Of a stretch of DNA of 64,000 bases, positions 4,170 to 18,958 are shown piece by piece. The stretch spans positions 30,003 through 94,002 of the forward strand of contig PLUE01000065.1 in the NCBI GenBank assembly GCA_003164785.1, read 5' to 3'. Both the position numbers and the translations under genes were made by a program. Every line of letters starts with the position of its first letter. The first letter of the stretch is position 1. The DNA is from Gammaproteobacteria bacterium. GTDB lineage: Bacteria > Pseudomonadota > Gammaproteobacteria > Steroidobacterales > Steroidobacteraceae. Below the pieces are notes generated by a model, which saw nothing but the letters and a program-made list of their open reading frames with translations, was not told the DNA's origin and searched no databases.

Positions 4170-4544
4170 ATGGCAAACACGATACGATCGGGCGACAAAA
4201 GCAATCAAGATCTCACGCGCCGCGCGGACGCAGACGCAGCGGCGCCAGTCCAGACTGTGGACGTCGAGTTTGACTTGACGAGCACCCCAAAGCCACCAGG
4301 AATTGTGCGTCTGTATCTCTCCGGTACTCAACCGGGTAACGAGATTGCAACCTCCGCAAAGCCGCACGGTGTGCTTCACCAGCAAGTCGTTGGGTCGGAT
4401 CTCCAGCTCATCATGGATATCACGGGGAATAGCGGCGAGGGCGGTTCATTTTCCGTCAAGGCTGCTTTGCCCAGCCCCATTTCTCTTCACCTCGATGATG
4501 GGCCTTCAAAGAAGTCGATAAAGTACTTGCATGTAACGGGGTGA
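4170..4544 (+). CDS. Hypothetical protein (124 aa), first gene of an AT-richer two-gene cassette
   Basis: Strong RBS GGGGGAGGAACCGAGG immediately before the ATG. The stop lies 3 nt before the next start. No recognisable motif. Confidence 0.5.
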   Translation: MANTIRSGDKSNQDLTRRADADAAAPVQTVDVEFDLTSTPKPPGIVRLYLSGTQPGNEIATSAKPHGVLHQQVVGSDLQLIMDITGNSGEGGSFSVKAALPSPISLHLDDGPSKKSIKYLHVTG

Positions 4545-4547
4545 GAC

Positions 4548-5936
4548 ATGAAGGCAATCATTCTGATGCTGGCGGGATGCTTCGCTTGCATGGGCTTTAC
4601 GTCATCCTGCTTCGGGGCAGACGGCACTACGACCGAGTCGCAAAAAAGCGCAATCTTGGAGCCGCTATCGTCAGAAAACGCGCAATCTTCCACAGTTCCT
4701 TCATTCTCCAACGCCGCTTCAATCGAGGCCGGCACATCGGATACCAAAGGCAGCCTGATGTTCGCGGGGTTCGTGCCGCAGACGGCATTCGGCAACTACG
4801 TGCATTATGAACTCGGTGGTGATGCGCCCCTGGCGACCAAGGGATCGACGGATGAGGTGGACATCGGAACGGTATCGGGGCTGAGCGCCGGCGCTTCCGC
4901 GCATGGTTCGATCTCTGCCATGTGGTGGCCCCATCAGAGCGACTCCGCCTTGAAGGTTATGGGCGACATCTGTGCCAACGAACTTCCCAAGCTAATACCG
5001 GGATTTACAATTTCTGAAGTCTTTTGGCTTTCCGATGTTGACGGCGATTGCAGCCGATCCTTGTTCAAGAAGGACCTGTTGCAGAAGATCGTCGATGGTT
5101 TGAACGCTACAATCAATCAGTGCCGGAATCTCGCCATCAAGACTGAACAATTCGACCGCGACGCGGCGGATGCCGAGGAGGTGGCAAAAAAGGATCCCAC
5201 GAAGGGGAAAGCCATGCAGCCAAAGCAGCCGACGGCGACCGAAGATGTCACCGATAAACAGCGGCAGCTGCAGTGCGATGCCTTGATGAAGCATCCAGAG
5301 CTGACCACGACCTCCCACGGAAAACCTGTATTCGATCCCAAGGCCAAGGTGGTGCTGCAAAACGTCGACAACCCGGCAACACTGACCAGGATTCTTGCGG
5401 AAATAAATCAATCCGATCGCACCCTGAGTCATGTGACTCTGTTGACTGTCGGCACGACGGTCAACCGGCAAAAGGACGCCTATTTTAACAAGAGCGATCT
5501 CGCAACCCTGATCAGCGATCATACGACGGGGTACGGCGCGAACATTACTCTGTCGCAGATTCGAGGGAGCGCACTCTATGCGGGCGGATTCTCATATGAG
5601 AAGACATCCAAAAGCGCCACTCCCACGCAGGTCTGCTCGCCGGTCAAGGGTTCAACATCGCTGAATTGTCCCTCCGGTACCATCGGTCCCCCGCAGGAAA
5701 CTTTTTCCCGGATATTATTCGCCGAGACCCGTGTCCTCATCAAGACAGGCGTATTCGCAATCGCCCCGCGACTGGAGTACGACGTGACGGCATCGAAGCT
5801 CGCCGCGAAGCTGCCATTGTACTTCGCGCCTGACAAGAGCAAGGCCCTTACGGGAGGCATAGCCCTCGGTTACGTCACGCACGGAGCTGGGTTCGGTGCC
5901 TCGATATTCGTGAACAAAGCGTTCTCTTTCTATTGA
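4548..5936 (+). CDS. Hypothetical secreted protein (462 aa), beta-rich C-terminus ending in aromatic residues
   Basis: Signal peptide MKAIILMLAGCFACMGFTSSCFGA. The last ~80 aa have alternating hydrophobic residues (...GGIALGYVTHGAGFGASIFVNKAFSFY). I recognise no family. Confidence 0.65.
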   Translation: MKAIILMLAGCFACMGFTSSCFGADGTTTESQKSAILEPLSSENAQSSTVPSFSNAASIEAGTSDTKGSLMFAGFVPQTAFGNYVHYELGGDAPLATKGSTDEVDIGTVSGLSAGASAHGSISAMWWPHQSDSALKVMGDICANELPKLIPGFTISEVFWLSDVDGDCSRSLFKKDLLQKIVDGLNATINQCRNLAIKTEQFDRDAADAEEVAKKDPTKGKAMQPKQPTATEDVTDKQRQLQCDALMKHPELTTTSHGKPVFDPKAKVVLQNVDNPATLTRILAEINQSDRTLSHVTLLTVGTTVNRQKDAYFNKSDLATLISDHTTGYGANITLSQIRGSALYAGGFSYEKTSKSATPTQVCSPVKGSTSLNCPSGTIGPPQETFSRILFAETRVLIKTGVFAIAPRLEYDVTASKLAAKLPLYFAPDKSKALTGGIALGYVTHGAGFGASIFVNKAFSFY

Positions 5937-6168: not shown

Positions 6169-8685
6169 ATGCTTCCCGCATGGATGGATTCGATATCGTT
6201 CCGCACCGAGCAGAACGGTGCTTGCAAAATACGCCTGATCGATGATCGGCCGCTGTATTCACCGCCGCAGTCGCTGAAGATTGCCAAACGATCAAGTGCT
6301 GCGGCCGCCGCTGCAGTCGCGATCGGAATTCTCGGCGGCTCCTTTGCTTTCAAGGTGATGGCCGAGACGGCGACCATGTCCGAGGACGCGGGCGCCGCTC
6401 TTGATGAGATCGTGGTAACGGCGCAAAAACGCGTATCGACGGTTCAGACGACGCCGATCAGCATCACTGCGGTCAGCGGCGCCGATTTGCTGGCTCGCGG
6501 CGTCTCCTCCTTGGCCTCTTTGGCGCAGGGCACGCCCGGCGTTTCGCTCAAGAGCGAAGGGCCCAGTCAGACGGAGATCGAGATGCGGGGCATGACCTCC
6601 AGCGGCGGCAACTCCGCCACGGTCGGCTTCTATCTCGACGACATTCCCTTGGCGGGGCCTGCAAGTGCCCAGAATGGGCACGTGGTGATCGACCCCGATC
6701 TCTACGACCTCAGTCGCGTCGAGATCCTGCGCGGGCCTCAAGGTACGCTGTTCGGGTCGGGTTCGATGGGCGGCACAGTCCGATTGATTAGCAACCAGCC
6801 GAACTTGACGGAGTTTCAAGCGACCACACAGAGTGTCTTGTCGGGCACCGACGGCGGCGGGTTCAATCACAAAGACAGTTTGATGGTCAACCTTCCTCTT
6901 ATCAACGACACCTTGGCATTGCGGGTGGCGGGAACGGAAGACTATACGAGCGGTTGGATCGACCGCATCGTAGTCAACTCCCTTCCAATAGCCGTTGGAA
7001 GTCCGGTCGGCACCGTGCGCGGCGACGTCCAGAACGCCCCCATCGAGAAGCAATATCCGGGCTCGAATGCCTATCAAACCTACGCAGTGCGCGCGAGTCT
7101 GCTGTGGAAGCCGATGGAAAACCTGTCGGTCACGCCGGCATTCTTCCACACGACCAGTACTCAAAACGGCATCAGTGCCTATGACAGCAATCCCGGTACC
7201 CTGGCGCACTACCAACCTTTTGACATCGCCGAACCGCTGACCGATTCGCTGACGGCCTACAGCCTCAATGTGAATTACAGTTTCCCGTGGTTCGATCTGA
7301 CATCGAGTACTGCGCGATGGACCCGAAACTCCTCTCAGGTAGAGGAGGCCAGCGAGGCCTTCAATAATCCGGCCGAAGGAATTACCTATGCCTCTAACAA
7401 CGGTCTTCCGAACCCTGGTTATTATGGCCCGACCGGGTCGGGTCCGCAGCACGGTATCGAAGACGATCCTTCCCATCAGTTCAGCGAGGAGCTGCGATTG
7501 GCTTCGACGGGGAACGGAAGAGCCAGCTGGGTTGGCGGGCTCTATTACAGCAATTACTACTCTTTGTGGGGCTTCCGGGGTACGACGCCCAATTACTCCT
7601 CGTATATGGATCTCGGCACGCTCGCGCCGGCAACCACACCCAACTGGTACGATGCCTACTCGCCTACCACGCTCTCGCAGTTTGCGGCCTTCGGCGACGC
7701 CACCTATGCTCTGACCGATGCGCTCAAGATCGATGTCGGCGCCCGCGTGAATCACTACGATTATCGCTTCTCTTCGTGCCTCAGCGGCTGGGGATCGGCT
7801 CACGGAGCCGCTACGCCCTCGTGTTCCGGTCTCATCGCGCTATCGAACAACAGTTTCAACCCCAAATTCAATCTAGCCTACACGTTCAGCCCGGACTTGA
7901 TGGCGTATGCAACCGTGTCGACCGGCTTCCGTCCCGGCGGGGGCAACGCGGTCTATCCGACCACGGGTGCCGCCTGGGGAGCGGCTTTCCAGCAGCAGGG
8001 TTATACGAGCGGCAAGTGGCCCTCGACGTACGCACCGGACTCTGTCTTGAGCTACGAGCTTGGCGAAAAGTCGCGATTCTTTGATCGCCGCCTGACGGTG
8101 AACACGAGTATCTATTATGAGGACTGGCGCCACCCCCAGCTCGAGGCGTATCCGAACGACTGGGCGCTCAACATCAACGGTGACTATGTCTCCATCTATG
8201 GCGCCGACATTGACATGCTCGCTGACCTGGGGGCGGGATTTCAGTTCGAAGTCGCGGCCGGCTACCTCTATGAATATCTGGATGGGGGCCCGCACTGGGT
8301 GATTACTCCGGTCCACAAGATGCCGGAGGTCTCGCCGGAGAGTGGGACCGTCGCTCTCAACTATTCCAAGCTGCTCGGTGCCTCCTACACGTTCACGGCT
8401 CGATTGGAAAGTTCCTACACCGGCCCGCGCTACTCGATCTACTTCTCGGACCCTTACGAGTTCACTGGTACGTACAGACAAATGCCCGGCTATGACCTGG
8501 TCAACGTCCGCGCGGGAATCAAGTTTCATGATAAGTGGAGCGCGACGGCATTCGTCAACAATCTCACCAACAAGCACGCCCAGCTGGAGAGCATGTTCAC
8601 GGAAAATGAGCCCCAACCGAGCTTCACCCGCATTGAAACCAACCAGCCGCTCACCGGGGGTGTCGACCTGACCTACCGTTTCTAG
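6169..8685 (+). CDS. TonB-dependent receptor
   Basis: Plug region DEIVVTAQKR...TPISITAV, barrel repeats, and terminal ...GGVDLTYRF. The start is uncertain: the signal-peptide-like segment AKRSSAAAAAAVAIGILGGSFAFKVMA begins 37 codons after the first ATG. Confidence 0.85.
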   Translation: MLPAWMDSISFRTEQNGACKIRLIDDRPLYSPPQSLKIAKRSSAAAAAAVAIGILGGSFAFKVMAETATMSEDAGAALDEIVVTAQKRVSTVQTTPISITAVSGADLLARGVSSLASLAQGTPGVSLKSEGPSQTEIEMRGMTSSGGNSATVGFYLDDIPLAGPASAQNGHVVIDPDLYDLSRVEILRGPQGTLFGSGSMGGTVRLISNQPNLTEFQATTQSVLSGTDGGGFNHKDSLMVNLPLINDTLALRVAGTEDYTSGWIDRIVVNSLPIAVGSPVGTVRGDVQNAPIEKQYPGSNAYQTYAVRASLLWKPMENLSVTPAFFHTTSTQNGISAYDSNPGTLAHYQPFDIAEPLTDSLTAYSLNVNYSFPWFDLTSSTARWTRNSSQVEEASEAFNNPAEGITYASNNGLPNPGYYGPTGSGPQHGIEDDPSHQFSEELRLASTGNGRASWVGGLYYSNYYSLWGFRGTTPNYSSYMDLGTLAPATTPNWYDAYSPTTLSQFAAFGDATYALTDALKIDVGARVNHYDYRFSSCLSGWGSAHGAATPSCSGLIALSNNSFNPKFNLAYTFSPDLMAYATVSTGFRPGGGNAVYPTTGAAWGAAFQQQGYTSGKWPSTYAPDSVLSYELGEKSRFFDRRLTVNTSIYYEDWRHPQLEAYPNDWALNINGDYVSIYGADIDMLADLGAGFQFEVAAGYLYEYLDGGPHWVITPVHKMPEVSPESGTVALNYSKLLGASYTFTARLESSYTGPRYSIYFSDPYEFTGTYRQMPGYDLVNVRAGIKFHDKWSATAFVNNLTNKHAQLESMFTENEPQPSFTRIETNQPLTGGVDLTYRF

Positions 8686-8816: not shown

Positions 8817-9071
8817 ATGACACAGCCAGCGCCCCTGTCCACCGTCATTGTCGGGGGCCGGACGGTCAGAGAGAACCTCGAGCATGCCGTGATGAGCGGC
8901 GCCGTGCTGCAGCATCCAGACGGCAGATATGAACTGGCTGAATCCGCATCCGACAAGCCGCCGGTGCTGGATCTGTTCATGCGGCCCTTGTCGCGGGCGA
9001 CCTCCCTGCCGTGTGCGTTTCTAAACCGGTTCCTCCGTTGCCCCATCCCACCAAGAGTGGATCGGAAATAG
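8817..9071 (+). CDS. Hypothetical protein (84 aa)
   Basis: ATG preceded by GAGG. The first ~65 codons have G/C-rich third positions. The 3' end overlaps the next ORF by 61 nt in another frame. Confidence 0.4.
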   Translation: MTQPAPLSTVIVGGRTVRENLEHAVMSGAVLQHPDGRYELAESASDKPPVLDLFMRPLSRATSLPCAFLNRFLRCPIPPRVDRK

Positions 9072-9475
9072 ACAATCCCGAGAATCCGCATCCCTATGGC
9101 ACCTACCTTTATTTGAACGGTATCAATCAGGCACGCGAGGTCTATCGCACCCTGCGGAGACAGATCGACGGGCACGAACACCTGGGCCCCAACGTCCAAA
9201 TGCTGATCAAGCGCGGCTGCACCAATTACGAGCGCAAATGCGGCCCCTCGGACCGGTATAGCTTCGATCCGGCCCTGGGAGCGGTCGAAGCGGAATTGTC
9301 CGAGCGGTTCATCAAGCCCGTCCAGCCCATCCCTCCCAAGGTTCGAAACCCACTCAGGCTGATCGAGATCATCAAGATCGCGTATCGCAGCGGTGACGAG
9401 ACCTATAAAGATTTCACCCACGGCAGGAACCTGTTGCCGCCGACCATCGCCTATCCGCCCGAGCCCGGAAGCTAG
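9011..9475 (+). CDS. Hypothetical protein (154 aa from GTG), Pro-rich N-terminus, ends ...TIAYPPEPGS
   Basis: G/C-biased third codon positions in a locally AT-richer stretch. The stop lies 7 nt before the PqqD-like start. No recognisable motif. Confidence 0.45.
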   Translation: MCVSKPVPPLPHPTKSGSEIDNPENPHPYGTYLYLNGINQAREVYRTLRRQIDGHEHLGPNVQMLIKRGCTNYERKCGPSDRYSFDPALGAVEAELSERFIKPVQPIPPKVRNPLRLIEIIKIAYRSGDETYKDFTHGRNLLPPTIAYPPEPGS

Positions 9476-9482
9476 ACCCAAG

Positions 9483-9791
9483 ATGAACAGTACTCTGCGC
9501 TTCGAACTCGATACCCCGGTCAGATGGCATCCAGAGCACATCGCGGGCGAGGTCAACGGCCTGGTCGTGGTGCTGGGCATGTCCCAAGGCAAACATGTCG
9601 GCTTCGACGCGATGGCGACCCACGTCTGGCATCGCCTCGAATGGACGCAGACCGTGTCGGAACTATGCGACGGCCTCGCCAAGGACTTCGATGGCGATCT
9701 GGTCGTCATTCGGCAGGATGTCATCGACCTCTTGACTCAACTGCAGGAATTGAAGCTGGTCGAGATCGGGGTCGGCGATCTTTCGGCTTGA
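9483..9791 (+). CDS. PqqD-family protein (RiPP recognition element, lasso B1-like)
   Basis: 102 aa. The segment ...GLVVVLGMSQGKHVGFDAMATHVWHRLEWTQTVSELCDGLAKDFDGDLVVIRQDVIDLLTQLQELKLVEI matches the PqqD/RRE pattern: a beta strand, then ...LN.tA..iW..l....tv.el, then ...Dv..fl..L...gLv. Confidence 0.8.
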   Translation: MNSTLRFELDTPVRWHPEHIAGEVNGLVVVLGMSQGKHVGFDAMATHVWHRLEWTQTVSELCDGLAKDFDGDLVVIRQDVIDLLTQLQELKLVEIGVGDLSA

Positions 9792-9855
9792 CGCTGGCGC
9801 AGCCTCGCCCGACCGCATCCTCTATGGCTATCGCCTGCGCACGGATCTGCCGCTG

Positions 9856-10707
9856 GTGTCGTTGCCGCCGGCGGTTGGGGACGGCGCGCCCGAGATCGAA
9901 CTGCGCTGCAGCGACATTCCTCAGAGATTGGACGCGCCGGCTTGGAGCAGTCCGTTCATCGATATCGGAACGGACGGCAACGTGTTGATGCGCCTGGGTC
10001 AGCACACGCGCTTCCTCATCCGTGGAGGACGCGAGGTCATCGTGGACGAAGGCGCGGCGGCGCATATGCCGGATGTCGAAACCTTCCTGGTGGGGGCCGT
10101 GTCGGGCGTGCTGCTGCACCAGCGCAACGATTTGGCCCTGCATGCGAGTTGCGTTGCCATCGACGACCGAGCCGTTGCCTTCGTCGGCCCGTCGGGCCGG
10201 GGCAAATCGACCCTGGCCGCGTTTCTTGCCGCGCGTGGATTCGCGCTCTTGACCGACGACGTTTGCCGAATAGTGTTCCAACGTCAGCATGTGTGCGTCG
10301 TCCCGGGCTCCTGTCGCCTGAGATTGTGGCCGGACGCGGCGCGCGCGCTGGATCACGCCCCGGAAACGCTGCCGACGGGGCGGTCCGGCCATCCCAAGCG
10401 CGTTCTGGTCCTTCCTGTTGGAAGCGTCGATCCTGTTCCTTTGGCTGCGGTCATCCGATTGGCAATCGATACCCGCCTGAAGACCCCCAGTCTGAGCAGG
10501 TTATCCGGACCTGCCTCGGTCATGCCGGTGGAAGACCTGCTCTACCGGGCGCGCCTGGGTCGCCGCCTCGGGCGTCGGATCCCGCTGTTCCAGGGCCTCA
10601 CCCGTCTGGCGGGCCTGGTCCCCGTTTTCAGCCTGACGCGCACCGGGGATATGGCGGATTTGCCGGGCCTGGTCGGTCTGGTGGCATCGGTCATGACGGG
10701 CGGCTGA
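9856..10707 (+). CDS. HPr-kinase/phosphorylase-like P-loop kinase (RiPP-associated HprK-related type)
   Basis: P-loop FVGPSGRGKSTLAAFLAARGFALLTDD. Coordinates start at the first canonical start (GTG 9856). The family-typical N-terminal motif LYGYRLRTDLPL is encoded in-frame upstream at 9820-9855. Confidence 0.8.
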   Translation: MSLPPAVGDGAPEIELRCSDIPQRLDAPAWSSPFIDIGTDGNVLMRLGQHTRFLIRGGREVIVDEGAAAHMPDVETFLVGAVSGVLLHQRNDLALHASCVAIDDRAVAFVGPSGRGKSTLAAFLAARGFALLTDDVCRIVFQRQHVCVVPGSCRLRLWPDAARALDHAPETLPTGRSGHPKRVLVLPVGSVDPVPLAAVIRLAIDTRLKTPSLSRLSGPASVMPVEDLLYRARLGRRLGRRIPLFQGLTRLAGLVPVFSLTRTGDMADLPGLVGLVASVMTGG

Positions 10708-11552
10708 TGGCCGGGGTGCAGTTCGGCTGGCTGGTCTCTTATCCGAAATCCGGCAACACTTGGATGCGGATGATGCTCTCCAGCCTGATGTCGGGCGGTG
10801 GATCGGTCGATATCAACGCGATCGATAGCAGGATCGGCATCGCGACCTTCGCCGAGATGGACGAATTCCTGGGCGTCGAATCCTGCGAATTGACTCGCGA
10901 GGAGATTGCGATCGCACGCCCGGCCCTGCATGCCGCGATCGCCGCCGATCACGATGAGCCCCTGATCCTGCGCAAGGTCCATGACCGCTATTGGAGAACC
11001 CCCTCGGGCGGCGCCGCTTTCGTCCCAGACATCAGCCGGGGGGCCGTGTATCTCGTGCGCGATCCACGCGATATCGCCGTCTCTTATTCCCATCATCGCG
11101 GTAGCGAGATCGACCGCATGATCGGTCAAATGGCCGACGACGACGTCGCCCTGGCGAGCGCGACCTTGCGCGGGAAGGAACAGTTGCCTCAACCTCTTGG
11201 GTCGTGGAATGGACATGTTCTGTCGTGGTTGGATCAGACCGAGATCCCCACCCTGGCCATGCGCTATGAGGACATGCTCTCTGCCCCAACGGCCTGTCTG
11301 GCCAAGGTCGCGATGCATCTGGGCATCGACACCGCCGAGGCGCATCTACACGCGGCGGTCGTCGCCACCGGGTTCGACATCCTGAGCATCCAGGAAAATG
11401 CCTCCGGCTTTCGTGAACGGCAGACCTCGGCGATGGCAGCGTTTTTCCGGCAGGGCCGCTCCGGCGGCTGGCGCGAGCAGCTGTCGGCGGCCCAAGCGGA
11501 CCGCATCGTCGATCGTCACGGCGCAGTCATGGCTCGGTTCGGTTATCTGTGA
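10707..11552 (+). CDS. PAPS-dependent sulfotransferase family protein
   Basis: 5'-PSB loop YPKSGNTW and 3'-PB motif VRDPRDIAVS. The ATG overlaps the kinase TGA (TGATG). Confidence 0.85.
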   Translation: MAGVQFGWLVSYPKSGNTWMRMMLSSLMSGGGSVDINAIDSRIGIATFAEMDEFLGVESCELTREEIAIARPALHAAIAADHDEPLILRKVHDRYWRTPSGGAAFVPDISRGAVYLVRDPRDIAVSYSHHRGSEIDRMIGQMADDDVALASATLRGKEQLPQPLGSWNGHVLSWLDQTEIPTLAMRYEDMLSAPTACLAKVAMHLGIDTAEAHLHAAVVATGFDILSIQENASGFRERQTSAMAAFFRQGRSGGWREQLSAAQADRIVDRHGAVMARFGYL

Positions 11553-11564
11553 CCTGCGAACCGT

Positions 11565-12238
11565 TCAGTTGGTGCCCTCCGCCCAGGCGATGAAGGCGCC
11601 GACGCTCAATGCACCACTCAGAAGCGCACTGAACCCGGACCTCTGGCGTTCCGCCGCCACCGTATCGGCCGGCCAGTTGCCGATCATAGGGTCGAGACGA
11701 TCGAGGTCGAGCAGGCGCTGCGCGGTTGGCGACCGCCGCAGCCGCTCCATCAGGGCCGGCAGCGACGACCGAGCTTCAGACAGATGGGCGAACCATTCCG
11801 GATGCTGCCGCCCTCGCAACTTGTTCTCCGTAACGGCGCGGGGCACCCCCGCCGCGCGCAGCAGGCGGCGCGCAAGATAACGGTTCGTGCCGTTCTCGAG
11901 GAACTGTTCCTCCGGGATGGCGAGACAGAATTCGACGAGTCGCAGATCCGCGAGCGGCATCAAACTGTCCAGCCCGTGAATGCCCCGCAGGGCGTTGACG
12001 AGGTCCGGCCGCCGGCTCCGCCCGCGTTTCAGCGCCTGAATCCGCAACAGGCGGCTATCCGGCGACAAGACGAATCTGGTGTCATTGCCTCGTTGCCGCA
12101 TGCGTTCGCGAAGGCCGAGTTGAGCGAGCGACTCATCCGTCGCGACGCCAGACCCGGCTCGTCCGGCGGTGCAAGAGGACGGACCGGGAGAGCCTCCCCG
12201 CCGGACCCCAGCCATGCGGCCCCGACGAATGAACTCAT
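11565..12238 (-). pseudogene. Asparagine-synthetase-like lasso cyclase (C protein), internally deleted and frameshifted
   Basis: The N-terminus MSSFVGAAWLGSGGEAL... starts at ATG 12238 and resembles AsnB/lasso-cyclase starts. The C-terminal ~190 aa lie in another frame (...GLDSLMPLADLRLVEFCLAIPEEQFLENGTNRYLARRLLRAAGVPRAV...) and match an Asn synthetase C-terminus. Only 674 nt are available, against the ~1.5-1.9 kb expected. Confidence 0.55.
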
Positions 12239-12252
12239 GGCGAGTGCGGCCG

Positions 12253-12417
12253 CTAACTCGTGGAGCCACTTGCATGGTCACTATGTACGCCGATACTGCT
12301 GAGCGTTCCGCGCTCGACATCCAGAACCGACACTTTGGGCCGCTGCCACTGGTTCCGAACGACCGTAGGCCGCTCGTCCGCTCCGGCTTCCTCGTCTGCC
12401 TCTTCGTTCATTTCCAT
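12253..12417 (-). CDS. Candidate lasso-peptide precursor (54 aa), absent from the ORF track
   Basis: Sequence MEMNEEADEEAGADERPTVVRNQWQRPKVSVLDVERGTL|SSIGVHSDHASGSTS. Leader W-x-x-P-x-V motif, Thr at -2, Ser1...Asp8, C-terminal Ser. GGTGGGGA lies upstream of the ATG pair. The stop is 14 nt before the cyclase remnant. Confidence 0.55.
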   Translation of the reverse strand: MEMNEEADEEAGADERPTVVRNQWQRPKVSVLDVERGTLSSIGVHSDHASGSTS

Positions 12418-12591: not shown

Positions 12592-13218
12592 TCAACGAGC
12601 CGTTGGCTCGAAGCGACTAACCTCGATTCCCGCGCCGACGGGCAACAGCACGCTCGTGATGCCGGGCTTTGCGCGGACGGCGCTGACGTAGCGCTTCACC
12701 GGCTCTCCGCCCGGGTACAGAATGTTGTCCGCAACGATGACTGCACCTGGATTGAGCAATGGATAGAATGCCTCGAGGCAGGGTACGTAGAGATCTTTCC
12801 AGAGATCGAGCAGTACGAAGTCGATGCCGCGCGGGAGGCTTCCAATCAACTGCACTGCGTCGCCGACCTTGAAGTCGACATGGTCGGCGAGGCCGGCCTT
12901 CGTGGCCATGTCGCGCGCATAGGCGGACTTGTAGTCTTTGAGTTCTAACGTCGTCAGGCGGCCGCCACTTGCCCGCGCGGCTTCCGCCAGCCAAATTCCC
13001 GAATACCCATAGGACGTCCCAATTTCCAGGATATTGGGCGTCTCGAGGCTGCGGGCGATGATGTTGATCAATCGTCCCGTCTCCGGTCCAACCGCAAGGA
13101 GCTGGCGGTCCCGCCAGTCTTCCGATCTATCGGCTGGCGCCGCGTTGTTTCGCAGTTCCCTTTCTGCGTGCATGCGCTCGTGGTACATGTCGAGAACCGC
13201 ATCGATTCGATCATCCAT
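12592..13218 (-). CDS. Class I SAM-dependent O-methyltransferase (family 3, caffeoyl-CoA-OMT-like)
   Basis: SAM motif I ILEIGTSYGYSGIWLA, then ...LTTLELKD..., DFVLLDLWKDLY, and GAVIVADNILYPG. Confidence 0.85.
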   Translation of the reverse strand: MDDRIDAVLDMYHERMHAERELRNNAAPADRSEDWRDRQLLAVGPETGRLINIIARSLETPNILEIGTSYGYSGIWLAEAARASGGRLTTLELKDYKSAYARDMATKAGLADHVDFKVGDAVQLIGSLPRGIDFVLLDLWKDLYVPCLEAFYPLLNPGAVIVADNILYPGGEPVKRYVSAVRAKPGITSVLLPVGAGIEVSRFEPTAR

Positions 13219-13375: not shown

Positions 13376-13616
13376 TTCGCACCGCCGCTGGAAGGACTGA
13401 TAATGGGCACCCGCAGCGGGGACATCGATTTGGCAATTGCGTCAACATAGGGAGGATGCCGACGTCGATCTTGCGGTGAATATGTTCGGTTATCGCGTCA
13501 AGAAGTACATTGGTGCTCATTTGGCCGCGCTTGGCGGCGCGGATGCCATCGTCTTCGGCGGCGGGATTGGCGAGAACGAGGGACTGATGATGGCCCATCA
13601 TGCCGCGCGCGCTTGA
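13376..13616 (+). pseudogene. ackA: Acetate kinase remnant (two out-of-frame fragments)
   Basis: [19 protein letters not shown] (frame 2, stop at 13448-13450) and [41 protein letters not shown] (frame 0). Both match conserved acetate kinase segments. About 80 of ~400 aa remain. Confidence 0.6.
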
Positions 13617-14538
13617 TCGCCCGGTAACGCGCGCGCAGGGCAAGGCTCGCGGCGGACCGCGACGACAATCATCGAGCGGCGCAGACGTCGCGTCCCCGCT
13701 TTCCGTCCCGTTCAAGGTCGCCGCGCGACCCGCCCATTCGCTGCACGATGCTGCCCTGAGCCTCGTCGACGGCGCGATCGATACCTTGAGGCGGCGTCAC
13801 GACGACCAGGCCATCCATGCGGCCCGCAAGGCCTGCAAACGCATCAGAGCCGCATTGCGCCTGTTACGTGGGTGCTTGGGGCCCGGTGTCTACCGGCGCG
13901 AGAATAGGAGGGTTCGGGACGCAAGCAAGCCCCTCACCGCGGTCAGGGATGCCTTTATTCTGCGAAAGACACTGGGCGCGCTCCCTCATCGTCCGGTCGC
14001 TTTCCAGCGCGGCCTGGATTCGGACTATCGAGCGGAACGACAGGTACTGGAGCGCCGAGGAGCGCGTCGCGCTCTCAATCTGCTCACGGAGACTCGCGCC
14101 AGGCTTCTCGACCTGCCGTCGGTCGGCTCGGAGGCGGCGTCAGCCATTGCCGGCGCCAGAAGCGTCTACAAGGCCGGACGCAAAGCCCTCAGAAACGCCC
14201 GGCACAGGGATGATGAAGCGCTGCACGAGTGGCGCAAGCAGACCCAATACTTGGTGAATCAACTCGAGCTTCTGAAGTCCGTATTCAATGCCAAGTTCGG
14301 CAAACTCCACCAGAGTGCGGAGAAGATAGCCGACGCATTGGGGGATGACCATGACTTGGGCGTCCTCATGAGCAAGCTGCAGGCCTACGAGGCACCCGAT
14401 GAATCCTTCATGAAGGTCATCAACAAGCGACGCGGCAAGCTGCAGGCGCGCGCGTTTCGCATGGGAAGGAAATTATACCGGCACCCGGAAAAGCACTTCG
14501 AAGCGATCGTGGCGGCGCGTTTGTCGAGACCCAAGTAG
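13600..14538 (+). CDS. CHAD domain-containing protein
   Basis: [20 protein letters not shown]...[17 protein letters not shown]...[11 protein letters not shown] pattern, typical of CHAD helical repeats. Confidence 0.75.
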
Positions 14539-18022: not shown

Positions 18023-18958
18023 TCAATACACTTCGGGCACCAGCATCTCCGCCGGCACCGACTGCCGGGAGTAGTGTTCATGACGTTCGCGCAGCGGCAG
18101 CACGATCGGCGTCTTCGGCAACTCGGCATAGGGAAATTGCTTCAACAGATGATCGATGCAGTTCAGGCGGGCGCGCTTCTTGTCGACCGCCTGCACCACC
18201 CACCATGGTGCCTCGGGGATGTGCGAACGTTCGAGCATGATCTCCTTCGCCTTGGTGTACTCCTCCCAGCGGCGTCGCGATTCAAGATCCATCGGGCTCA
18301 ATTTCCACTGCTTCAGCGGATCGTGAATCCGGCCTAGGAAGCGAATATATTGCTCGTGATCGGTGATCGAGAACCAGTATTTGATCAAGCGAATCCCCGA
18401 GCGCGCGAGCATGCGTTCGAATTCGGGCACGGAGCGGAAAAACTCTTCGTATTCCTCGGGCGTGCAGAATCCCATCACCTTTTCGACGCCGGCGCGGTTG
18501 TACCAGCTGCGGTCGAACAGCACCATCTCGCCGGCGGCCGGAAGGTGGGATACGTAGCGCTGAAAATACCACTGCGTCCGTTCGCGATCGTTCGGCGCCG
18601 GCAGGGCCGCGACACGGCACACGCGCGGATTCAGCTTCTGAGTGATTCGCTTGATGGCGCCGCCCTTGCCGGCGGCGTCACGCCCCTCGAACAGAATCAC
18701 GACCTTCTGCTGGGTCGCGACCACCCAATCCTGCAGCTTGACGAGTTCGGCCTGCAGGCGATACAGCTGCTGGAAGTAGCTTCGCCGAAACGTCCTTCCT
18801 TCGGCGGAGTCGGCCGGCTTGTCCTCTCCCGGGAGGGGATGGCGATCCTCGATCTCCATCTCCAGCTCTTCGTCGTAGCTGTCCTCGAGATCGCGCCGGA
18901 TGCCGCGAATGAGTTCTTCCTGATCGAGCGCTGGATTGGTGTTCGTATTCATAGGCAC
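18023..18958 (-). CDS. ppk2: Polyphosphate kinase 2
   Basis: VVILFEGRDAAGKGGAIKRI (Walker A), FDRSWYNRAGVEKVMGF, and a lid region typical of PPK2. Confidence 0.9.
   Translation of the reverse strand: MPMNTNTNPALDQEELIRGIRRDLEDSYDEELEMEIEDRHPLPGEDKPADSAEGRTFRRSYFQQLYRLQAELVKLQDWVVATQQKVVILFEGRDAAGKGGAIKRITQKLNPRVCRVAALPAPNDRERTQWYFQRYVSHLPAAGEMVLFDRSWYNRAGVEKVMGFCTPEEYEEFFRSVPEFERMLARSGIRLIKYWFSITDHEQYIRFLGRIHDPLKQWKLSPMDLESRRRWEEYTKAKEIMLERSHIPEAPWWVVQAVDKKRARLNCIDHLLKQFPYAELPKTPIVLPLRERHEHYSRQSVPAEMLVPEVY

Follow-up and report, generated by a model that had tools for sequence, protein, structure and literature searches.

The minus strand of the window, a 64-kb stretch of contig PLUE01000065.1 (positions 30,003 to 94,002), carries at 12253-12417 a 54-codon open reading frame (ORF), here called A, in which an earlier note made from the letters alone had recognized the hallmarks of a lasso-peptide precursor. 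Near A are genes for a PqqD-family leader-recognition protein (B1), an HPr-kinase-like (HprK-like) peptide kinase (K) and a sulfotransferase, all intact, and the remains of two further genes, one for an asparagine-synthetase-type cyclase (C) and one for a protein that we call unk, each broken by a deletion (Table 1). Homologous loci in other genomes and metagenomes, referred to below as L001 to L024, hold the same genes, in several cases unbroken. From this comparison we consider A to be a genuine lasso-type precursor gene of the paeninodin-like kind with a C-terminal Ser, left as an orphan, as we think probable, in a cluster that was inactivated recently.

Read from 12417 to 12253, A encodes MEMNEEADEEAGADERPTVVRNQWQRPKVSVLDVERGTLSSIGVHSDHASGSTS and closes on a TAG stop at 12255-12253, and each of the features listed for it in the earlier note can be seen directly in its sequence. 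The leader contains W24-x-x-P27-x-V29, L32 and T38, which stands two residues ahead of the proposed cleavage site, and it ends in ...WQRPKVSVLDVERGTL. If cut after L39, S40 would become position 1 and D47 position 8 of a predicted core, SSIGVHSDHASGSTS, with a putative ring from S1 to D8 and a Ser at the C-terminus. The ATG with which the cyclase gene originally began, at 12238, is 14 nucleotides (nt) past the A stop. A Shine-Dalgarno-like run, GGGGA, lies 3 nt ahead of the first ATG of A and 9 nt ahead of the second, and the 52-amino-acid (aa) form (P0001) is the version called by other pipelines; this spacing and these calls make 12411 the likelier start, which would give a product of 52 aa. 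As A is listed as a hypothetical protein in JGI, ENA, Logan and NCBI gene calls on at least 39 public contigs, its description as unannotated does not hold everywhere.

An ORF of this length means nothing by itself, because 162 ORFs of at least 40 codons occur in 20 kb of this sequence with its G+C content (GC) of 63%. No promoter-like or terminator-like site was found near A, and scans of the window for tRNA genes and Rfam families gave no match. The composite motif [YWF]xxPx[LVI]...Tx[GASC]x6-8[DE]...S-stop, which combines the hallmarks of leader and core, occurs once in the six frames of the window at an expectation of 0.015 per 64 kb, estimated from first-order-Markov simulated sequence (3 of 200 simulations contained the motif). 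Scoring of A with precursor models stayed below threshold, the sole match to a curated hidden Markov model being that to the paeninodin family NF033524 at 12.5 bits (E = 0.09, cut-off 27), a model matched at E ≤ 1 by just two of the nine family peptides; as scored, A would fall outside this curated precursor family. The likeness to paeninodin that the earlier note had suggested is real, if below threshold, and is seen in the NF033524 match only.

A word-based homologue search with the A peptide alone retrieved only A, and an exhaustive phmmer search of 1.84 billion proteins was needed to return two small homologues, P0014 (52 aa, E = 4.8e-5) and P0016 (54 aa, E = 7.5e-4); the other loci were reached via relatives of the neighboring proteins. 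In all, A homologues of 51-54 aa lie beside the same genes in eight other loci (L020, L022, L017, L018/L019, L011, L023 and those of P0014 and P0016), in frame and undisrupted, which is the conservation that the earlier note had set as a check on its proposal. The L020 homologue finds the window by tblastn at E = 3e-17. A genome scan with the kinase contributed two metagenome-assembled genomes (MAGs), L017 (Candidatus Sulfopaludibacter sp. SbA3) and L018 (Acidobacteria bacterium), and a metagenome scan with the precursor alignment added one locus only, L019, a near-duplicate of L018.

The nine aligned peptides keep the lasso-precursor hallmarks that had been claimed for A. W and P of the leader motif, Thr(-2), Leu(-1), Asp8 and the Ser at the C-terminus are the same in all nine, and in the six closest-aligned peptides (alignment A2) L-x-V-E-x-G-T-L, Gly4 and the penultimate Thr are invariant as well. 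Core position 1 varies among S, G, A and T in the family, with Thr, an unusual residue at the head of a lasso core, in three relatives. The predicted tails past the ring have 6-9 residues (6-7 in the closer relatives), and most of these tails consist of G, S, T, N, A or H only. Even the precursor of the distant locus L023, NTL/AQGNAQSD...SSS (cleavage predicted at the slash), follows the same plan of T-2, D8 and C-terminal Ser. Over a 16-codon leader block the window differs from each relative by proportions of 0.32-0.90 at synonymous sites (pS) and 0.06-0.33 at nonsynonymous sites (pN); that pS lies far above pN indicates a translated, selected reading frame, and with this family-level conservation ORF A is a real gene.

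The conserved set in these loci comprises A, C, PqqD, the HprK-like kinase, the sulfotransferase and unk, joined in most loci by a 2-oxoglutarate (2OG)-Fe(II) oxygenase, which bears out the company (PqqD, HprK-like kinase, sulfotransferase and AsnB-like cyclase) in which A had been placed from the window alone. In L020, the closest locus (neighbors 66-82% identical), A is directly upstream of a 632-aa C and convergent with unk-PqqD-K-sulfotransferase. This is the layout of the window, where the Asn_synthase fragment, A and an O-methyltransferase gene, all on the minus strand, converge on the plus-strand genes. The same set with a C of 632 or 635 aa occurs in L022, L017, L018 and L019, and L021 has it on a contig that ends inside C; full-length C (632-635 aa) has a GATase_7 and a complete Asn_synthase domain. 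Two distant loci, L023 and L024, additionally hold the leader peptidase B2 (PF13471, E = 4.5e-24 and 2.8e-22) and an NTP_transf_5 nucleotidyltransferase, and L024 also has an ATP-binding cassette (ABC) transporter gene, a second AsnB-like gene and a TP_methylase gene. The canonical B2 of L023, found with a precursor of the same plan, ties the whole family to lasso biosynthesis. A small ORF in L024 (8903-9190, minus strand), upstream of a cyclase, ends in ...KPWTAPKVIVSNAMSAANVDNKGPFHIPDRKSSSTSTS; it shares the W-x-x-P start and the S-T-S end, differs in the junction region and is without the G-T-L motif.

The window has no intact macrolactam synthetase of the Asn-synthetase type, whereas L020, L022, L017, L018/L019, L023 and L024 do. 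Residues 1-58 of L020 C align to window positions 12238-12059 at 52% identity and residues 444-632 to 12134-11568 in another frame; the 3' remnant is 79% identical to L020 C by tblastn, residues 435-620 of L017 C match it as well, and L020 C residues 59-443 have no other tblastn match anywhere in the window. Relative to L020, approximately 1,225 nt are missing inside C. Because the loss is not divisible by three, reading on from the original C start gives a 69-aa product that is nonsense past the junction and stops at 12029, and the 178-aa "Asn synthase" of the gene callers begins at an internal ATG at 12101. At the junction (12108-12120) a stretch of 12-13 nt, ACTCGGCCTTCG, resembles both the 5' and the 3' site of the intact L020 gene, an imperfect microhomology. 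The missing stretch (~400 residues) comprises nearly all of the glutaminase-like (GATase) domain and the N-terminal, ATP-binding part of the Asn_synthase domain. That the AsnB-like gene is a remnant, as had been noted, is thus confirmed, with only residues 1 to ~40 and 444-632 of C remaining.

As all nine database matches of the 178-aa Asn_synthase fragment are 98-274 aa long, we considered whether it might be a conserved stand-alone short protein, and rejected this on account of the full-length genes of 632-635 aa in L017, L019, L020 and L022. Among the short matches, P0003 begins 6 nt from a contig end; P0004, which begins 20 nt from one, and P0005, P0007 and P0010, which are without a Met start, look like partial calls; and P0006 derives from the L011 cyclase gene, which is split over two frames. 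In L011, a 283-kb metagenome contig, the N-terminal part of the cyclase is at 8893-10281 and the C-terminal part at 9980-10810, and the gene is intact at 635 aa in the close relatives L018 and L019; the split stems either from an indel introduced in sequencing or from a second decay of the gene, independent of that in the window.

The unk gene of the window is also broken. Residues 1-72 of L020 unk correspond to 8817-9035 and residues 103-254 to 9011-9466 in a different frame, with ~115 nt missing out of frame. The lost stretch (residues 73-102) holds C86 and C89, as read from L020 against alignment A3 (relatives P0019-P0079), in which four Cys (C65, C86, C89, and C172) are invariant. The family has 63 database homologues, typically of 252-269 aa (~255 aa), two being labelled as proteins of Pseudolabrys and Alphaproteobacteria MAGs, and its gene usually adjoins that of the 2OG-Fe(II) oxygenase. 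It matches no Pfam or NCBIfam family, and although its AlphaFold model is confident, with a predicted local distance difference test (pLDDT) score of 91, Foldseek found no PDB match better than E = 0.02, only generic ferredoxin-like folds. We considered unk as a replacement for B2 and rejected it, as it has no PDB relative and no invariant His and co-occurs with B2 in L023 and L024.

The same broken structure recurs in 13 metagenome contigs that were assembled independently (L001-L010 and L014-L016; up to 20 kb, window 2253-22411) and are found in JGI, ENA and Logan, with a DNA identity of 99.97-100%; they come from different samples and pipelines, and the deletions are therefore not an assembly artefact. 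The 13 contigs represent one clone, and so variation within this population is uninformative on selection. The locus is listed in 32-40 collection blocks, as would result if a single clone had been sampled very widely, or several times over from samples related to one another.

To place the deletions in time we compared the ratios of nonsynonymous to synonymous substitution rates (dN/dS) between the window and L020. The ratio is 0.115 for the 3' remnant and 0.19 for the 5' remnant of C, and 0.10 and 0.21 for the two pieces of unk, beside 0.20 for the kinase, 0.22 for the sulfotransferase and 0.26 for PqqD. Such low values suggest that purifying selection acted on the C and unk remnants for almost the whole of the divergence time and hence that the deletions are recent. 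Recent deletions in turn suffice to explain that A, B1, K and the sulfotransferase have stayed intact, and their intactness does not show that they are still of use.

The three intact partners retain the features expected of them. PqqD matches the Pfam family of that name at E = 3e-10, above the cut-off, as a PqqD-type recognition element should, is 66% identical to its L020 homologue and has as its best NCBIfam match lasso_PqqD_Bac (33 bits, under the cut-off of 80). The sulfotransferase, 78.6% identical to that of L020, contains PKSGNTW and RDPRD, which we take to be its motifs for binding 3'-phosphoadenosine-5'-phosphosulfate (PAPS). In the kinase the motif H96-x14-G-x2-G-x-G-K-S-x15-D-D (H96, G111, G114, G116, K117, S118, D134-D135) has the spacing of H148-G163-G166-G168-K169-S170-D186-D187 in BsfK (PMC10368454). 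An HprK-like kinase with its His, Lys and Asp-Asp and a predicted precursor ending in Ser, the pairing of the paeninodin type, are thus both present. Linear lasso precursors receive phosphate on their C-terminal Ser from kinases of this type, often more than once, before the leader is removed and the ring closed (PMC8498205; PMC9266682). The leader peptidase, by comparison with L023 and L024, is missing: two B2 proteins used as tblastn queries matched nothing at E ≤ 0.01 in the 64-kb window, and PF13471 is absent from the called genes within 10 kb of the locus. No exporter was found near the window locus, and the DNA around the clusters of L011 and L017-L022 contains neither an ABC exporter nor a nucleotidyltransferase.

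Table 1. Features at and around the precursor locus of the window (C and unk residues numbered as in the intact proteins).
Feature	Position	Strand	Basis
Two ORFs without Pfam family (124 aa, 462 aa), preceding the TonB-dependent receptor	4170-5936	+	
TonB-dependent receptor	6169-8685	+	Pfam/NCBIfam scans and gene calls
5' part of unk (residues 1-72)	8817-9035	+	tblastn/blastn against L020
3' part of unk (residues 103-254), open as a 154-aa ORF	9011-9475	+	tblastn with L020 unk, 82% identity
PqqD-family leader-recognition protein (B1; RiPP recognition element, RRE), 102 aa, intact	9483-9791	+	Pfam PqqD
HPr-kinase-like peptide kinase K, 283 aa, intact	9856-10707	+	Hpr_kinase_C, ScmC, HprK_rel_A
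Sulfotransferase, 281 aa, intact	10707-11552	+	Pfam Sulfotransfer_1, E = 7e-21
Cyclase C, 3' remnant (residues 444-632 of 632)	11565-12134	-	Asn_synthase profile positions 205-343 of 354
Deletion junction in C	12108-12120	-	Pairwise DNA alignments against L020; blastn
Cyclase C, 5' remnant (original start and ~40 codons)	12121-12238	-	Alignment to L020 C
Precursor gene A	12253-12417	-	Sequence, homologues
O-methyltransferase, Methyltransf_3/24 type	12592-13218	-	Pfam

The TonB-dependent receptor gene abuts the cluster and has no counterpart in the DNA upstream of the L020 cluster, so that a link to the peptide is not indicated. The O-methyltransferase gene, 174 nt upstream of A on the same strand, has no counterpart beside A in L020 or L022, and because of this lack of conservation it is probably a bystander outside the cluster. 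Lassomycin-type methyltransferases are PIMT-like (related to protein-isoaspartate methyltransferase), and the enzyme encoded here is of the Methyltransf_3 and not the PIMT type, so that the dedicated, conserved O-methyltransferase of lassomycin-type clusters is not found. Farther along, a 59-aa ORF with a Pfam Acetate_kinase match (13437-13616, plus strand) overlaps the start of a CHAD-domain gene (13600-14538) and looks like a gene fragment, and a PPK2 polyphosphate kinase gene is nearby at 18023-18958 on the minus strand. From 22000 to 64000 the window contains ordinary metabolic and regulatory genes, for example those for an RPE65-type oxygenase, a pyrroloquinoline quinone (PQQ) dehydrogenase, SnoaL_4 proteins, an FGE-sulfatase-domain protein, major facilitator superfamily (MFS) transporters and a MASE1 histidine kinase, and no further gene for a ribosomally made, post-translationally modified peptide (RiPP).

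The homology, the synteny, the deletions and the intact catalytic motifs, which are all directly supported, lead us to regard A as an orphan precursor in a recently inactivated cluster, no longer matured to a lasso peptide by the local genes, a reading to which we give a probability of roughly 0.75. The pathway as it would run in an intact cluster can be outlined from the relatives and from characterized paeninodin-type systems, with the cleavage site, the ring and every biochemical step being predictions. PqqD would bind the leader motif W-x-x-P ... L-D-V-E-x-G-T-L, and the HprK-like kinase would phosphorylate the invariant C-terminal Ser of the linear precursor. The sulfotransferase, unk and, in many loci, the 2OG oxygenase may further tailor the Ser/Thr-rich core. 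The leader would then be cut after Thr(-2)-Leu(-1) and the Asn-synthetase-type cyclase would close an 8-residue ring from residue 1 to Asp8. With C deleted out of frame, unk broken and no B2 in the 64 kb, the local cluster, as predicted from its gene content, cannot make a lasso: ring closure would be impossible with the local genes and the peptidase is missing from the window. The reading given in the earlier note is correct as to the type of gene and has to be amended as to the state of the cluster.

Several observations weigh against this interpretation. For no member of the sub-family is a product, a transcript or the activity of an enzyme on record, and the NCBIfam and Pfam precursor and RRE models were matched only under their cut-offs. 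Even for the intact clusters of L011 and L017-L022 leader removal is unexplained, since tblastn (E ≤ 0.01) finds no B2 in the ~7-21 kb around each. The short tails, rich in Gly, Ser and Thr and lacking an obvious plug, do not assure a threaded topology. Between A and its L020 homologue dN/dS is 0.65 over 54 codons, which are too few for selection on the window's own copy to be shown. Finally, with the 64 kb as our scope, C and B2 could come in trans from another lasso cluster, intact and located in some other part of the genome.

If such a cluster exists, A might still be matured by its cyclase and B2, with the local B1, kinase and sulfotransferase doing the tailoring. That A, PqqD, K and the sulfotransferase are unbroken and have kept their motifs would fit this idea, as would the fact that genomes can hold more than one such cluster type and that L024, from another organism in the same sample, is complete with two AsnB-like genes. 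L024 is assigned to another organism because its GC is 68.8% against ~63% in the window and its unk is only 56% identical, and tblastn finds no second cyclase or B2 in the window. Lasso cyclases and peptidases are, moreover, usually specific for their own leader and core, and that two cluster genes were lost together has the look of a relaxation of selection across the pathway, so that maturation in trans seems to us unlikely.

Loss of the cyclase might instead have been adaptive, with the surviving A, PqqD, kinase and sulfotransferase genes making a functional linear phospho- and/or sulfo-peptide. Lasso kinases do work on the precursor while it is still linear and carries its leader (PMC8498205), none of the four genes is broken and the locus is fixed in all 13 contigs compared. 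The low dN/dS of the remnants, however, indicates recent deletions, which are enough to explain the intact genes, and fixation is uninformative in what is a single clone at 99.97-100% identity. Since the locus also has neither an exporter nor a leader peptidase, we regard an adaptive loss as quite improbable, although it is just conceivable that in this genome the surviving module of A, B1, K and sulfotransferase might persist as a maker of such a linear peptide.

A different objection concerns the sub-clade without B2, which could represent a non-lasso class of RiPP that reuses PqqD, the kinase and the AsnB-like enzyme, for instance for side-chain amidation or a non-threaded macrolactam. The absence of B2 from the ~7-21 kb around each of seven relatives, the tiny, plug-less tails and the conserved unk protein, with its confident fold (pLDDT 91) and no PDB match, are all compatible with this. 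Yet L023, with its canonical B2, shares the precursor type (T-2, D8, C-terminal Ser) and the accessory genes, Thr(-2) and the placing of the invariant Asp as the eighth core residue are hallmarks of lasso peptides, and wild-type pseudomycoidin is plug-less and nevertheless made by lasso enzymes (PMC6993621); a non-lasso class is accordingly a poor bet. That the frame of A, in GC-rich DNA with a gene on either side, is open only by chance, as the 162 ORFs with 40 or more codons in 20 kb at 63% GC and the absence of promoter-like or terminator-like sites nearby might suggest, is refuted by the comparative data, the peptide being kept beside the same genes in eight other loci at saturated synonymous divergence with its key residues invariant, and by a motif expectation of 0.015 per window.

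The orphan-precursor reading has consequences for how such loci are found and used. Leader and core hallmarks can reveal a real RiPP precursor below the usual ORF length cut-offs, and here they point to an uncharacterized sub-family of lasso-type clusters with an associated kinase, found mostly in metagenomes and belonging to soil Acidobacteria and other bacteria. As the window cluster is dead, cloning it as it is would yield no lasso peptide, and the intact relatives L020, L022 and L017 are for this reason the worthwhile targets for expression. It is conceivable, as a long shot, that the acidobacterial sub-clade without B2 or exporter nearby makes very small lasso or branched-cyclic peptides of 14-15 aa in which an anionic phospho and/or sulfo group on the Ser/Thr-rich tail is the sole plug and from which the leader is removed by an enzyme other than B2.

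Among known lasso peptides, sungsanpin and chaxapeptin resemble the window family in size, at 15-16 aa with an 8-residue ring on Asp8 and a tail of ~7 residues, but they are actinobacterial, have bulky aromatic plugs and undergo no tailoring by a kinase or sulfotransferase. The BsfA/BsfK system of Bradymonas sediminis (PMC10368454) is likewise a Gram-negative, kinase-containing lasso cluster and shares the spacing of the kinase motif. In that system B1 stimulates phosphorylation, and the same study had already recognized lasso precursors of Acidobacteriaceae and Sphingomonadales in silico (PMC10368454). BsfK differs in phosphorylating Ser3 of the ring and not the C-terminal Ser, and the leaders reported with it have Ile or Val at -2, in place of the invariant Thr(-2) of the window family.

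A parallel to the tail is pseudomycoidin from the psm cluster of Bacillus pseudomycoides (PMC6993621), which also lacks a bulky plug and whose C-terminal Ser is (poly)phosphorylated by an HprK-like kinase, a modification known there and predicted here. The psm cluster includes psmN, a gene of nucleotidyltransferase type, comparable to NTP_transf_5 in L023 and L024. It differs in coming from a Firmicute, in its longer core with an A1-D9 ring, in the presence of B2 and an exporter, and in having no sulfotransferase, 2OG oxygenase or unk gene. Its authors proposed that bulky C-terminal modifications help to keep the lasso threaded, the unmodified form unthreading to a branched cycle (PMC6993621). 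A charged or bulky C-terminal group as the lock, as the earlier note had speculated for the plug-less core of A, is hence not a new idea.

The paeninodin type, exemplified by PadeA/PadeK of Paenibacillus dendritiformis, ThcoK, and SyanA/SyanK of Sphingobium yanoikuyae (Zhu et al., 2016; reviewed in PMC8498205, PMC9266682), is the nearest characterized group. Putative sulfotransferase genes have been noted in some of its clusters (PMC8498205), the only mention of sulfation in the literature searched, in which we found no characterized sulfated lasso peptide. The window family departs from this type in its much shorter core (14-17 aa), which is rich in Gly, Ser and Thr and has a predicted 8-membered ring, in carrying unk (~255 aa) and often a 2OG oxygenase, and in that neither B2 nor an ABC exporter lies in the DNA around the clusters of the closer relatives and the window cyclase is broken. 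What the two have in common is a split B1 (PqqD), an HprK-like kinase with His...GxxGxGKS...DD, a precursor that ends in Ser, Thr at -2, an Asp as the ring acceptor and the leader block (K/R)P-x-x-x-VLDV that gives the only NCBIfam match, NF033524. On these shared features the window family is a relative of the paeninodin, ThcoA and SyanA kind.

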